A stretch of 42,381 nt of DNA, from the NCBI GenBank assembly GCA_964618405.1, contig CAZUAY010000002.1, positions 1 through 42,381 of the forward strand, written 5' to 3'. The notes beneath the pieces are model-generated. The model was not told where the DNA came from. It saw only the letters and a program-made list of their open reading frames with translations, and did no database searches. Both the position numbers and the translations under genes were made by a program. This DNA comes from an uncultured Lentisphaerales bacterium. Its GTDB lineage: Bacteria; Verrucomicrobiota; Kiritimatiellia; RFP12; UBA3636. Positions 16,815 to 21,613 of this stretch are shown here, one piece after another (positions within the stretch are counted from its first letter, which is position 1; the number at the start of each line of letters is the position of its first letter).

Positions 16815-18929
16815 ATGACGAATGATTTTAAGTGGGGGCCAGCGAATCCGCATCCGCTCTCGAAAATGCGCACGGAATTGGTCTGGGATGGCAAGTACGA
16901 CGAGTACGGCAACCGCCGGGAGGTGGATGTTGCCGCCTGCTCCATGCCTATGCAGAAGATCGAGACCGTGGATGAGCCCCGCCAACGCGCCGCCGCCACA
17001 GGCCAAGGTGACTTCTTCGAGCAGAATCTGATGACCTTGCGTGAAAAAACGCATCCCTACGAGCCCGACTTCCGCAACCGCCTCGTCTGGGGCGACAACA
17101 AACTTGTCATGGCCAGCCTGCTCAAAGATTTCAAGGGCAAGATCGACCTGATCTATATCGACCCTCCCTTCGACGTTGGTGCGGACTTTACGATGGACGT
17201 GCCCATCGGCGACGGCAAGGAGACCGTCGGCAAAGACCAGTCCTGCCTTGAAATGGTGGCGTTCAAAGATATGTGGGGCAGAGGCACCGATTCCTATCTG
17301 CACATGATGTATGAACGGCTGTCGCTCATGAAGGAATTGCTCTCGGAGAAAGGGAGCATCTATGTACATTGTGACTCTCGGATGAACTCCTACCTTCGAC
17401 AAGTCCTCGACGAGGTTTTTTCGGGATTTAACTTCGTAAACCAAATTACTTGGCGACGTACTGGTGCCCATAACGACCCAGGTCGATACGGCATGATTTC
17501 CGATACAATCCTATTTTACACTAAGACTGAAAATTACATCTGGAATCAACAATTCGGTATTCGTTCCGACAAATCTGTTGCTACGTCGTTCTCTTACGTT
17601 GAAAAACCAGATGGTACTTGGGAACGGCTTTCGAAAGACCAAACGATTCCGTCCGGATGGAGAAGATTTCAATCCGTGACCCTTCGCAGTCCAAACCCAA
17701 GACCAAACCTCTACTACCCCTACAAGGGCTTTATGCCGCATAGGAATGGTTGGTCAATCGGCAAGGAACGGATGGAAAAGTATGACCGAGAAAACCGGCT
17801 CCTGTTTCCTGAAAGCAAAGAAGGTGCGATTCGTCTCAAAATGTATCTTGACGAGTCACCAGGAATTCCAGTTCAGGATTTATGGACTGATGTCGGCAAA
17901 CTCGAAGCCATTTCCTCCGAGAACTTGGGCTATGCTACCCAAAAGCCCGAAACTCTTCTCGAACGCATCATCAATGCGAGCAGTAATCCCGGCGATCTTG
18001 TCGCCGACTTCTTTTGCGGGAGCGGTACGACGGGCGCGGTGGCGGAGCGGCTGGGGCGGCGTTGGATACTGGCGGATCTGGGACGGTTTGCGATCCACAC
18101 CACGCGCAAACGTATGATCGACCTACAGCGTAGTCTGCACGATGTGGGGCAACCGTACCGTGCGTTCGATGTGTTTAACCTCGGGCGCTACGAGCGTCAG
18201 TGGTGGCAGAAGGAGCGGCTGCAAGGGGCTGAAGGGGAGCATCGCCGGGTGGTGCTGGAGTTTTTCAAGGCCGAGGTGCTTGCCAACCCGCCCAACCCGC
18301 TGCTGCACGGTCGCAAGGGCGGCGCGTTTTGTCATGTGGACGGCATCGACTCCGTCTTCACGCGTACGGATGCGCAGGCCGTGGCCGAGGCGGTGCGGCA
18401 GGCGGGAGGCCGCGAGGTCACGTGCTTAGCTTGGGAATTCGAGATGGATCTGAGGCAGTTTTGTCTGGGGCTTGAAGCGGGTCTCGGCGTGAAGATGCGC
18501 CTAGTACCCATTCCGCGCGAGGTAATGGAGAAGAACCGCACGTCGCCGCCACCGTTTCTCGAAATGGCAGTGTTGGAGGCGGAGGTTGTCCATCGGAAGG
18601 AAGACGGCGTGAAGTCGGTCGACGTCAAGGTCACCCAGTTTATGCCGTCGTTATCGGAAGTACCCAGCAAAGAGTTGGCGGCTTTGAAGGAGCGGGCGGT
18701 CAAGAGCGGTTTCGACTTCATCGACTTTTGGGCAGTCGACTTCGACTGGCAGCCGGGGCAACCGTTTCGGCACGATTGGCAGGACTACCGCACGCGCAAG
18801 GACCGCTCGCTCAAGACGGTGAGTGATGCGGGGCACGTTTACGACAAACCCGGCAAGCATACGATCTGTGTGAAGGTCGTGGACGTTTTCGGGTGTGACA
18901 CGAGCATTGTAGTGGAGGTCAACGTATGA
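16815..18929 (+). CDS. Type III-like Mod DNA methyltransferase (beta-class N6/N4) with PKD/Ig-like C-terminal tail
   Basis: Motif IV is DLIYIDPPF (17145-17171). Motif I is [10 protein letters not shown] (18006-18035). This order (IV, TRD, I) is typical of Type III Mod. The N-terminal [10 protein letters not shown] block is present. An extra ~250-aa C-terminal region ends in [23 protein letters not shown]. The tracked ORF begins at GTG 16773, but ATG 16815 with an upstream GGAGA is preferred. Confidence 0.85.
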
Positions 18930-21613
18930 ACCCTGATTCCCAACCGAAGAGCATCATAGAAAACGACGGCATTTTTAAGAACGGTTCCGTCTGGCTGAGA
19001 GCGGATTTTCACCTGCACACCCGCGCCGACAGGGAGTTCACATACACGGGTGAAACAAACAGTTTTGTGAGCGATTATACTACCGCACTGGAAAAGGCGG
19101 GGATCCGTCTTGGTGTAGTCACGAACCACAACAAATTCGCGTGCGATGAGTTCAAAGCCCTTAAAAAGGCTGCACGAAAGACGGATATATGTCTATTGCC
19201 GGGTGTTGAGCTTTCTACCAATGACGGCGCGAACGGCATTCATGTTCTGGTTGTTTTCAGTGAGAGTTGGCTAGCGAACGGAACAGATTACATCGCTCCC
19301 TTCTTGACCTCCATGTTTCCCGGGAAAGCCCCATCTGAATATGAGAATGCGAATGGCCGGAGCGACAAGAATCTTCTCCAAATGGTTTCTGAACTGGAGA
19401 AAACAGGACGCGACTTCTTCCTAGTTTTTGCGCATGTGGAAGCTGATAACGGTTTATGGTCGGAACTGGGGGGGGGCAGACTACAGGACTGGCGAGGCAA
19501 CAATTACGAGTCTTTGAGAAGGCGTACGCTCGGGTTTCAGAAAGTCAGAACCCACGACGGGGCGGGGAAAGAGAGGCCATGCAGGGCCAAAGTGAAAGCG
19601 TGGTTGGGCGACTGGTATCCAGCGGAAGTCGAAGGCAGCGACTGTAAGAGCATCGAGGACATTGGAAAGGGCGACCCGTGTTTTTTGAAAGTCGGAGACT
19701 TCACCTTTGAAGCGACGAAGTATGCCTTGTTGGACTATGAGGACCGGGTGGCATCAGAACCGGTTCCTGTCCGGCATTCGCACATTTGCAGCGTCGCTTT
19801 CCAAGGCGGCATCCTCGATCAGCAAACCGTGAATTTCTCATCCGCTCTCAATACGCTGATTGGCATCCGGGGTAGCGGGAAGTCGTCCATTCTGGAGGCA
19901 CTACGGTACGTGCTAGATATTCCTTATGGCGACAAGGCCATGGATCAGGATTATAAGCGTTCTCTGGTGAGACATACTTTGGGCAGCGGGGGAAAAGTAA
20001 CCGTTCAAGCCAAAGATATATATGGCCAGACGTTTTTCGTCTCTCGCATCTGGGGCGAGGCACCCAATGTTTATCTGGATGGTAAACTCCAGCCTGGGGT
20101 CTCAATCCTTGAAACCGTACTGCGGAAGCCGATATATTTCGGGCAGAAAGATTTAGCCAGCACGGGCGAGGGATTTGAAAAAGACCTCGTTGAGAAACTG
20201 GTCGGTGAGAAACTGAAAACAGTTCGTAACCGGATCGATGCACAGCGGCAAAAGGTTCAAGAGATGGTGGCGCGATTATCCAAGCTCAAGAACACAGAAG
20301 ATCAAAAGAAAGAATATGAAGCCCAAAAGCAGGATGCATCGTTCCGGCTTGAGGCATTCAAAAAGTTGGGCATAGAGGCAAAACTACAGAAGAAAGTCGA
20401 TTTCAACGCTGATGCCGCAGCTCTGCAGAGGATTGGGACGCTGGTGTCCGAATACATCGCCGATCTGAACGAGTTTATCAGTCGTCATGAAGATGACCTT
20501 AAAAACGCAAGGGCGTATCAAAGCAAGCAGGACGGGGAATTTTTCAGTCGCTACTTTGATGCCTACGGCAAAGTTTTGGATGCGTTTGAACAAATCAAGA
20601 AGATTTCCACAGACACCAAGACGGCACAAGGTGATCTGCTTAAACTCGCAGGCGACTTCTCATCCAAGGTCAAAGGGCTTCAGGAAGAGTTTGCAGGAAC
20701 CGAACGTAAACTTGCTGAAGAGCTTCGACTCAGTGGGCAAACCGTTATCCAGCCTGATGATTTCATCCAACAACAAAAGCGTCTTGTCATCGCCACGCAG
20801 ATGGTGGAGGCTCTCGAAAAACAGCAGCAACAGAAAAGCGGGGTAAAGACGGCGTTGCTGACTGAATTGGATGCTTTAAACAGTCTGTGGTGGGAAGAGT
20901 TTACGTTGATCCGAACTGAGCTGAAACGGGTCAACGACAACAACGCGGCGCTAGAGATCGAGTCCGAGTTCAAAGGAAACAAGGCCGATTTCCTGAACTG
21001 CATGAAACAGTTTTTCCGTGGTAGTAGTATCCGTGAAACGACGCTAAACGGCTTGGTCGACACCTACGCCGATTTCGGGGCGATGTATCGCGATTGGAAT
21101 CAGGTTAAAGCGAATGCCGGTAGCTCTCCTGATGTATTTGAGTCCTATTTCATGAACGCGTTGGCTGATTTGTTGTGTTTTCAAGTGCCGAACAAATTCA
21201 CGATTAACTATCGTGGGAAAGAACTGAAGGAACATTCGCTGGGACAAAGAGCATCCGCATTGATCCTTTTTGTTTTAAGCCAGCGCGATAACGACGTGTT
21301 TATCATTGACCAGCCCGAAGACGATCTGGACAACCAGACGATCTACGACGATGTCATCAAACTCATCAAGAGTATGAAGACAGGTACGCAGTTCATTTTT
21401 GCCACACACAACGCCAATTTTCCTGTTCTTGGGGATGCCGAGCAAATTCATGCATGCTCTTACGAAGGGGACCGGATTTCTCTGCTAAGTGGAAGTATAG
21501 ATTCCACCGTGCTTCAACAGGAAATTATCGACATCATGGAAGGCGGAGAAGAAGCCTTTAATAGGCGCAAGGAGGTATACAGCATATGGAAATCGCAGAA
21601 CTTATCGAAATAA
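18926..21613 (+). CDS. PHP phosphoesterase domain fused to SMC/Rad50/ABC-type ATPase with coiled coil
   Basis: The N-terminus ([12 protein letters not shown]...GVVTNHNKF) is a PHP metal-binding signature. ATPase motifs are Walker [10 protein letters not shown] (19862-19888), a long charged helical insert, signature-like LGQRASAL, Walker [13 protein letters not shown] (21296-21331) and an H-loop, ATHNAN. The start overlaps the Mod stop (ATGA), with a GGAGG SD 8 nt upstream. Confidence 0.8.

Follow-up and report, generated by a model that had tools for sequence, protein, structure and literature searches.

A TrlF–TrlG gene pair lies between the mod and res genes of a Type III-like restriction-modification operon

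Results

Organization of the mod–trlF–trlG–res locus

The DNA analyzed here (hereafter, the window) is a stretch of 42,381 nucleotides (nt) of contig CAZUAY010000002.1 from an uncultured Lentisphaerales bacterium (assembly GCA_964618405.1), and its central feature is a run of four tightly packed open reading frames (ORFs) on the plus strand (Table 1). The outer two encode Mod and Res, the methyltransferase and the helicase–nuclease of a Type III-like restriction-modification system, and the inner two encode TrlF, in which a PHP phosphoesterase is joined to an SMC/Rad50-like ABC ATPase, and its partner TrlG. The longest mod ORF opens at a GTG at 16773, and the likely start is the ATG at 16815, with GGAG at 16800. 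A preliminary description, based on the letters of the sequence, had reported a start/stop overlap between the phosphoesterase gene and a Type III-like mod, and this holds: the trlF ATG (18926–18928) overlaps the mod TGA (18927–18929) in gtATGAacc, with a GGAGG ribosome-binding site eight bases ahead. The trlG frame in turn overlaps trlF, and the res ATG follows 8 nt past the trlG stop. As a result, mod and res stand 3817 nt apart and are not adjacent, as would be the norm for a Type III system.

Independent assemblies from at least three studies cross the Mod–TrlF, TrlF–TrlG, and TrlG–Res junctions. Several studies have obtained metagenomes with this region from bioreactors, wastewater, and manure. 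An assembly chimera was rejected because every junction is spanned by independent contigs, and a recent one-off insertion was rejected because the junctions are common to diverged relatives (88.6% and approximately 72% nucleotide identity). Complete genomes of Escherichia coli gave no match to the operon DNA.

Two groups of relatives bear on the age of the arrangement. Loci L172 and L173 have 88.6% DNA identity to window positions 20294–22919 and an identical TrlG–Res junction; in these, trlF–trlG is retained and res ends after approximately 56 codons, with unrelated DNA beyond (from their position 2286). Loci L174 and L175 have the order Mod, a remnant of approximately 90 nt of the 3′ end of trlF, TrlG (74% identity), a PIN toxin–antitoxin pair, and Res. 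Both groups share the junction history; therefore, the order Mod–trlF–trlG–Res is ancestral to at least three lineages and has decayed piecewise. The two groups (L174/L175 at 7885–8000, where trlF is lost, and L172/L173, where res is truncated) amount to natural "knock-outs" of the operon.

Family, fold, and conserved motifs of TrlF

The ORF at 18926–21613 encodes a genuine TrlF-family protein, in which a PHP phosphoesterase and an SMC/Rad50-like ABC ATPase form one polypeptide. The preliminary description had recognized both halves, and the ORF itself, an AlphaFold2 model, Foldseek searches, and the family profile NF045780 (TrlF family AAA-like ATPase, TrlF_fam_ATP) agree with it on this point. 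The NF045780 match scores 548.6 bits against a cut-off of 350 (E = 4e-164) and spans residues 19–885, corresponding to positions 1–943 of the 944 in the profile, which is far beyond chance; Pfam detects the ATPase halves only (AAA_21, SMC_N, and AAA_15). More than 5000 clusters of TrlF homologues were found, with homologues of 55–72% identity across phyla. Compared with typical family members, the TrlF of the window is only 55–62% identical, and it is thus a new, fairly divergent member of a barely studied family.

The assignment to TrlF replaces the earlier suggestion of a Ppl protein. Membership in Ppl (NF042955, PADLOC PDLC02208) was rejected at 129 bits against a cut-off of 1000. In both Ppl profile searches, made with hidden Markov models (HMMs), the best-matching stretch is the C-terminal part of TrlF, approximately 140 residues, and in tblastn searches annotated Ppl genes match residues ~750–883 of TrlF only. 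Aligned with Ppl- and TrlF-type ATPases, as had been proposed, the protein gives a full-length match to the TrlF family and a distant one to Ppl.

All motifs listed in the preliminary description (HLHTRAD, NHN, Walker A, LGQR, Walker B, and H-loop) can be read in the sequence. In the PHP domain, HLH (residues 29–31) lies inside HLHTRAD and NHN occupies residues 67–69; the candidate metal ligands are H29, H31, D35, H68, E95, H106, H170, and D239. Conservation was counted over the 86–87 TrlF genes that could be read at each position, with identities down to 40%. All of these ligands are invariant except H106, which is present in 86 of 87 genes, and the ATPase residues K319, Q407, S771, D795, Q796, E798, D802, and H828 are invariant as well.

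Matches to the Protein Data Bank (PDB) by sequence were weak and limited to SMC heads, and therefore fold prediction was needed. The AlphaFold2 model of TrlF, with a predicted local distance difference test score (pLDDT) of 72, has a β/α PHP-type domain and a split ATPase head. Foldseek matched the model in the PDB to the heads of SMC, MukB, JetC, Rad50, and RecF, including whole-chain matches to entries with coiled coils, and separately matched the PHP domain to 3o0f (the BAD_1165 phosphoesterase), Pol III alpha, 4gx8, 7ug9 (RNase AM), and 2yb1. These matches, together with the invariant or nearly invariant ligands, bear out the PHP fold claimed in the preliminary description. The coiled-coil-like insert that it had proposed appears in the model as long helices of high pLDDT (residues 428–453, 457–480, 484–530, 537–603, and 610–671). 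A CxxC zinc hook is absent from this insert, and the Pfam and NCBIfam profiles detect no known methylation-reading domain in TrlF.

In the Walker B motif (residues 791–802; 21296–21331), Q796 occupies the position of the catalytic glutamate of ABC/SMC ATPases. All 87 TrlF genes that were read have a glutamine here, as does Ppl. The SMC heads that were matched in the PDB by sequence likewise read LDQVE at Walker B, and we take these structures to be engineered E-to-Q mutants. The glutamine suggests a head that binds ATP and dimerizes with slow hydrolysis.

TrlG and the Photorhabdus temperature restriction locus

TrlG combines a Schlafen/AlbA_2 domain (residues 14–127; PF04326, 6e-20) with a GHKL-type HATPase_c_4 domain (residues 297–379; PF13749, 2e-13). 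Its AlphaFold2 model (pLDDT 74) was matched by Foldseek to the uncharacterized structure 3lmm, which was also the PDB match by sequence; further matches were the N-terminal nuclease cores of SLFN5/11/12/13/14 and the tRNase domain of SAMD9, and the C-terminal half of TrlG matched histidine-kinase/GHKL ATP-binding domains.

We collected 80 species-level genome loci with a TrlF alignment. A TrlG homologue (54–67% identity) is encoded directly downstream of TrlF in nearly all of these and in the closest relatives, contig permitting; the preliminary description, which treated the phosphoesterase–ATPase as a lone gene, had missed this overlapping and near-universal partner. The exceptions are L031 and L032, in which TrlG is lacking, and L021 and L065, in which it is broken. 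The pair is thus not absolutely obligate, and an IncF-plasmid subfamily of TrlF, 45% identical, also occurs without TrlG. As regards the surroundings of such solitary TrlFs, those of L031 and L032 lie between hsdS and hsdR, and that of the IncF E. coli plasmid L178 is followed by vapB. Because TrlG adjoins TrlF in nearly all loci and has the architecture of the Photorhabdus TrlG, we consider trlF plus trlG to be the functional unit.

The only paper that a full-text literature search on TrlF/TrlG and on AlbA_2 plus HATPase_c_4 turned up concerns Photorhabdus laumondii, in which the temperature restriction locus (TRL) consists of trlR–trlF–trlG (Hapeshi et al. 2020, PMC7554251). Growth arrest of this bacterium at 36 °C is relieved by point mutations in trlG or by deletion of the operon, and the arrested cells are viable (PMC7554251); the TRL arrests growth on its own and in a TrlG-dependent manner (PMC7554251). 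Searches of the literature for an anti-phage combination of PHP, Schlafen, and ATPase domains gave nothing. A preprint on component modularity names PHP only in Ophion, an unrelated system, and a match on "ppl" referred to an unrelated Listeria system.

The trlFG genes of the window have lost the small trlR-like upstream regulator of stand-alone copies. There is no small ORF of the helix-turn-helix (HTH) type between the VapBC-like pair described below and mod, and mod abuts trlF, whereas stand-alone TrlF relatives have an ORF of 45–116 residues upstream. At 72% identity, the TrlFs nearest to that of the window are stand-alone copies preceded by an ORF of 54–67 residues, and a neighbor-joining tree groups the window TrlF with stand-alone copies. 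The G+C content at third codon positions is 0.57 for trlF and 0.50 for trlG, compared with 0.67 for mod and 0.60 for res. The lower values, the stand-alone nearest relatives, and the grouping in the tree point to acquisition of a stand-alone module.

The Mod–Res system and its cargo slot

Mod matches Pfam N6_N4_Mtase (2e-43) and PADLOC MTase_III (PDLC03633, 746 bits), with motif IV (DPPF, residue 116) preceding motif I (FCGSG, residue 400). Res matches Pfam ResIII and a TnsA-like N-terminal domain, as well as PADLOC REase_III (1e-26), and has the motifs GSGKT (151), DEAH (297), PD (838), and ETK (853), all of which are invariant in 13 homologues. Against NCBIfam, Res reaches 284 bits for NF046055 (BPTD_3080; cut-off 800) and 23 of 564 for PRK15483. 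Its homologues reach up to 79% identity. The extension of approximately 250 residues that follows the PD-ExK domain (25300–26165) is conserved. Many Res relatives are 1205–1209 residues long with an additional match to DUF4926 (P0124, P0125, and similar), and others have approximately 1270–1290 residues; named relatives come from Verrucomicrobia, Luteolibacter, Hydrogenedentes, and Pirellulaceae.

In relatives, such as L085–L089, Res usually starts 5 nt after Mod, at a junction of the form TAA–5 nt–ATG. The C terminus of Mod and the N terminus of Res (MSEPLTIKTDALEPLYAAWEEP…) in the window are complete and collinear with those of the relatives, and because both ends are intact, the 3.8-kb trlFG cassette fills exactly the mod–res spacer. 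No repeat was found as an insertion scar at either end of the cassette (18926 or 22737), and no recombinase was seen at the junctions in the window.

A sample of ~71 loci of the Mod–Res family was obtained from a metagenome scan with a Res alignment followed by tblastn. The gap between mod and res is at most 60 nt in 57 of these, and 0.2–1.9 kb lies between the two genes in 13–14, or about one in five (Table 1). The intervening genes encode Fic (three times), RhuM, YhcG/DUF1016, PIN toxin–antitoxin pairs, XisH/XisI, Uma2, and proteins without assignment; another is a 631-residue protein with AlbA_2 and HATPase_c_4 domains, for which Fic-like_C is also listed. Hence, the junction between Mod and Res serves as a cargo slot in this family, and the largest cargo seen in it is the trlFG cassette of the window.

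Distribution and nesting of trlFG

The trlFG genes form a widespread, horizontally mobile two-gene module. TrlF occurs on 239 plasmids, of which 170 are conjugative; a TrlF is present on 118 plasmids from E. coli and 21 from Klebsiella. No PHROGs family matches TrlF, and full-length homologues are limited to two records labeled as phage, both of them unverified Listeria contigs. At most TrlFG loci, no restriction system adjoins the pair, which has its own small regulator. In nested copies, the interval from the preceding restriction-system gene to trlF contains no small regulator gene. In the tree, nested TrlFs are scattered among stand-alone ones, and nesting has therefore occurred repeatedly.

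Several layouts of nested or adjoining copies are listed in Table 1. In the IncC plasmid pNDM-1_Dok01 (L170, NC_018994.1, 164159–174929), the order is HTH–hsdR–trlF–trlG–hsdS–AAA–hsdM; from hsdR to hsdM, each annotated gene overlaps the next by 4–19 nt, and the element adjoins a Tn7-like tnsD. The same hsdR–trlFG–hsdS element is also found in 8–9 of the species loci. The slot between hsdS and hsdR is the one in which prrC resides (PMC12707154; PMC1484252). No report on recurrent nesting of trlFG in restriction-type operons was found in the literature searches made here.

No homologue of the present Mod or Res family was detected in any of the 83 other TrlF loci. The claim of a "new context" made in the preliminary description therefore stands for this Mod–Res family, in which nesting is new for trlFG and which is its first Type III-like host; it fails as a statement about nesting as such, which is common in Type I, methylase/SNF2, BREX, and Type IIG loci.

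Variation is also seen immediately upstream of trlF. In L004, L008, L011, L018, L022, and L042, the end of an ORF of approximately 400–450 residues coincides with the trlF start or immediately precedes it, with a 4-nt overlap in L004, L008, L011, and L022. A C-terminal Pfam T5orf172/MUG113 domain is recorded for five upstream ORFs, being confirmed in L004 and L042, with the other four assigned by size. This ORF may represent a third component of a TrlFG variant. The same position is taken elsewhere by AIPR proteins (L064 and L076) and YhcG proteins (L054 and L055).

Neighborhood of the operon

A VapBC-type pair lies approximately 800 nt upstream of mod, and the region is therefore regarded as a small defense/toxin–antitoxin island. 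The antitoxin-like N terminus (KGQITIPKEIRRKL) was assigned by eye from the ORF list and not by an HMM. Repeats near the operon are limited to low-complexity tandems outside it: TGGAATAATGGAATG units upstream (16138–16290) and, downstream (26246–26365), about nine 12-mers of the GATTAAGAGTAA type within a 33-nt inverted repeat (26173–26205/26357–26389). The k-mer depth on the contig is 5–10 times higher in both repeat stretches than in the operon. The flanks (280–13895 and 26452–33038) encode glycan-degrading functions, including two DUF4838 proteins, two SASA-esterase/GH2-like proteins, a GT4 glycosyltransferase, a PIG-L deacetylase, and an esterase. The host is probably an environmental bacterium that degrades polysaccharides.

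Table 1. Features of the operon region (window coordinates) and loci with related layouts.
Feature	Position or loci	Strand	Basis
VapBC-type pair: AbrB/SpoVT-like antitoxin (15380–15610), PIN toxin (15607–16008)	15380–16008	+	PIN PF01850, 4e-12
Mod, beta-class N6/N4 DNA methyltransferase of a Type III-like restriction-modification system	16815–18929	+	Pfam, PADLOC, motifs
mod/trlF coupling junction: GGAGG (18914–18918) and ATGA (18926–18929)	18914–18929	+	Read from sequence
trlF, TrlF family, 895 residues, PHP phosphoesterase and SMC/Rad50-like ABC ATPase	18926–21613	+	NF045780
PHP domain, TrlF residues 21–270	18986–19735	+	AlphaFold2 model, Foldseek, ligand conservation
Walker A/P-loop GIRGSGKS, TrlF residues 313–320	19862–19885	+	Motif reading; aligns to SMC P-loop
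Helical coiled-coil-like insert between ATPase half-heads, TrlF residues 428–671	20207–20938	+	AlphaFold2, Foldseek
C-terminal ATPase lobe of TrlF: SLGQR (771–775), Walker B/D-loop (791–802), H-loop ATHN (826–829)	21236–21412	+	Motifs
trlG, 383 residues, 28-nt overlap with trlF	21586–22737	+	Pfam, architecture, AlphaFold2/Foldseek
Res, 1139 residues, superfamily 2 helicase, PD-(D/E)xK nuclease, C-terminal extension of ~250 residues	22746–26165	+	Pfam, PADLOC
Mod–Res loci with other cargo	L084, L090, L093, L095, L096, L112, L117, L119, L123, L125, L126, L139, L150
hsdM-hsdS, trlF(G), hsdR	L031, L032, L049, L061
N6_N4 methylase (~955 residues), trlFG, SNF2 helicase	L020, L038, L041, L062, L074, L052
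BREX pglX, trlFG, pglZ	L057
Type IIG enzyme adjoining trlFG	L015, L037
ResIII gene upstream of trlFG	L023

Discussion

On balance, we lean toward reading TrlFG as an autonomous Ppl-like nuclease module, a second layer of defense that is co-inherited and co-expressed with the restriction enzyme but is not one of its subunits. Autonomy is argued for by the closest TrlFs and most TrlFG loci being stand-alone, by the interleaving of nested and stand-alone copies, and by the Photorhabdus TRL acting alone. From the anatomy of the operon, trlFG would be expressed from the mod promoter through translational coupling. TrlF may work as Ppl does, with ATP-bound heads that dimerize and helical arms that hold DNA, and the PHP site would then digest DNA starting at 3′ ends, with nucleotide binding, and not fast hydrolysis, as the gate. 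TrlG could be a sensor or regulator, or else a Schlafen-like RNase that arrests growth; the latter role agrees with the reversibility of the arrest in Photorhabdus and with the lack of trlF mutations from that screen. Mechanistically, the module would act independently of the restriction enzyme beside which it is encoded.

Several observations weigh against such an autonomous nuclease module. The literature contains no TrlFG that was shown to protect against phage, and PADLOC v2 has no model for a TrlFG system. In Photorhabdus, no trlF mutation relieved the arrest, which leaves the role of TrlF unproven (PMC7554251). Across the TrlF family, the PHP motif reads GSDCK, so that the final histidine of the canonical GSDxH is gone, whereas Ppl has GSDAH. 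The structural models are of moderate quality, with predicted template modeling scores of 0.46–0.47 for TrlF and TrlG and a pLDDT below 50 at the TrlF C terminus. A scan of the operon for promoters and terminators gave nothing above the expectation from shuffled sequence, so that a single transcript is neither backed nor refuted. Finally, at least 24 of the 83 TrlF loci, with at least five architectures among them, have trlFG inside a methylation-based system or next to one on the same strand; the count is a minimum, since many of the contigs are short. This frequency exceeds what would be predicted for a neutral passenger and hints at functional coupling.

Because nesting recurs, wiring of TrlFG to the host restriction system is a non-negligible alternative, although we hold it to be distinctly less probable than autonomy. 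As a guardian, TrlFG would be kept latent under Mod/Res, in the manner of PrrC with EcoprrI, and freed upon inhibition of restriction by a phage; as an amplifier, it would act on the 3′ ends left by Res or HsdR on unmethylated DNA, so that infrequent cuts would end in complete degradation. Such coupling is in keeping with the position of trlFG in Type I, methylase/SNF2, BREX, and Type III-like loci, where it lies between subunit genes and in most cases touches or overlaps them, with the independent origin of these nestings, and with the use of the same hsdS–hsdR slot by prrC (PMC12707154; PMC1484252). It would also fit the missing small regulator in nested copies, the reported requirement of Ppl for 3′-OH ends (PMC12904381), and the retention of TrlG between Mod and Res in L174 despite the loss of TrlF. 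Yet the predominance of TrlFG loci away from any restriction system speaks against it; one shared interface is unlikely for hosts that work by unrelated mechanisms and that include BREX, a system that leaves DNA uncut; and the presence of unrelated cargo between Mod and Res is what a site permissive for insertion would show. Another alternative builds on the methylation-controlled activity suggested in the preliminary description: the PHP–ATPase would be an additional nuclease subunit of Mod–Res, an SbcCD-like arm under the control of methylation. Start/stop coupling to mod would link the synthesis of the two proteins, and the pairing of a phosphoesterase with a Rad50-like ATPase is the architecture that this proposal calls for, but we consider it very unlikely: the enzyme is complete without an intervening gene in the 57 loci with closely spaced mod and res, the TrlF family mostly occurs without any methylase, Res has an intact PD-ExK nuclease of its own, and TrlF has no known methylation-reading domain.

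TrlFG may also serve no role in phage defense and instead be a stress-triggered growth-arrest or addiction module that stabilizes an island or plasmid, with the restriction operon providing a safe and expressed landing site. The sole experimental data, the TrlG-dependent arrest of viable Photorhabdus cells at 36 °C (PMC7554251), are of this kind, and the many conjugative plasmids with TrlF, the adjoining toxin–antitoxin genes, and the lack of a PHROGs family all agree with it. We nevertheless regard this explanation as improbable, given that TrlF is homologous to the validated defense protein Ppl and that its neighbors are overwhelmingly defense genes (restriction-modification, BREX, AIPR, NACHT-domain ATPase, and PIN). 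Arrest is, moreover, also a read-out of abortive infection, and the two explanations are not exclusive. A wider proposal would make TrlFG an unrecognized, widespread defense family, about 55–60% identical across phyla, that has been integrated time and again into immunity based on methylation (Type I, Type III-like, methylase/SNF2, and BREX). TrlFG would be a guardian that responds to blocked restriction or an exonuclease that completes the breakdown of DNA in which the host system has made nicks or cuts, and the Schlafen-like TrlG would be the switch or a second effector directed at RNA; we put this forward as tentative and rather doubtful.

Annotation pipelines carry the names TrlF and TrlG, but the two proteins are barely studied, and their published phenotype is growth arrest. 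At the same time, trlFG ranks with the better conserved and more mobile two-gene modules of bacteria and is carried on clinically important conjugative plasmids, including IncC plasmids with NDM-1. A distant Ppl homologue with a Schlafen-like partner, recurrent and translationally coupled nesting, and a 5-nt cargo slot make layered or coupled immunity a testable hypothesis, and coupling to restriction, if true, would be of high interest. For this purpose, the window provides a compact operon of four genes, of which natural variants without trlF or res exist.

Comparison with known systems

By sequence, TrlF is a sister family to Ppl, that is, a distant homologue with the same architecture. The 891-residue Ppl (NF042955, WP_015059139) has a collinear PHP domain, Walker A motif, helical insert, and C-terminal lobe, and shares the Walker B motif DQPEDDLD; its identity to the window TrlF is 24% over residues 20–330 (E = 4e-15) and 39% over residues 771–883 (E = 3e-16), the C-terminal ATPase lobe being where the two proteins are most alike. 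Unlike TrlF, which nearly always occurs with TrlG, Ppl works alone, and the Ppl gene of L179 has no TrlG-like neighbor. According to a review (PMC12904381), E. coli Ppl is a 3′–5′ exonuclease on single-stranded DNA that senses 3′-OH ends and is inhibited by nucleoside triphosphates at both its PHP and NTPase domains. The Photorhabdus TRL is matched in the domain architecture and length of both proteins and in the trlF/trlG overlap, and the window TrlF scores above the family cut-off; the TRL differs in having trlR, in place of which the window has mod upstream, with res downstream.

The resemblance to SbcCD/Mre11–Rad50 noted in the preliminary description holds for the pairing of a metal phosphoesterase with a coiled-coil SMC-like ATPase and for the Rad50 heads among the Foldseek matches. 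It does not extend to the details: TrlF is a single polypeptide with a PHP fold and not the calcineurin-like fold of Mre11, its insert is short (approximately 240 residues) and without a zinc hook, and Rad50 HMMs score 14–18 bits against cut-offs of 700–1087.

With regard to gene context, PrrC (of the Type Ic system EcoprrI) and RloC likewise combine an ABC/Rad50-like NTPase with a nuclease, are encoded between restriction subunit genes, and are co-expressed with them, and RloC also has a coiled-coil insert. In both, however, the nuclease is a C-terminal RNase domain that acts on tRNA anticodons, and a zinc hook is present in RloC, whereas TrlF has an N-terminal PHP domain. The PrrC-like trait of the window is that trlFG is encoded inside a restriction-modification locus, an arrangement that recurs in Type I loci. 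BrxU in its BREX island is similarly an independent defense gene carried within the cluster of another system, but it is a modification-dependent nuclease of the GmrSD type that is unrelated to TrlFG. The host itself resembles Type III restriction-modification systems with a Res of the BPTD_3080 type in its beta-class Mod, in a Res that joins a helicase to a PD-ExK nuclease, and in the position of mod directly upstream of res in its relatives; it differs in its longer Res (1139 residues), which falls under both NCBIfam cut-offs, and in the 3.8-kb cargo that splits the two genes.

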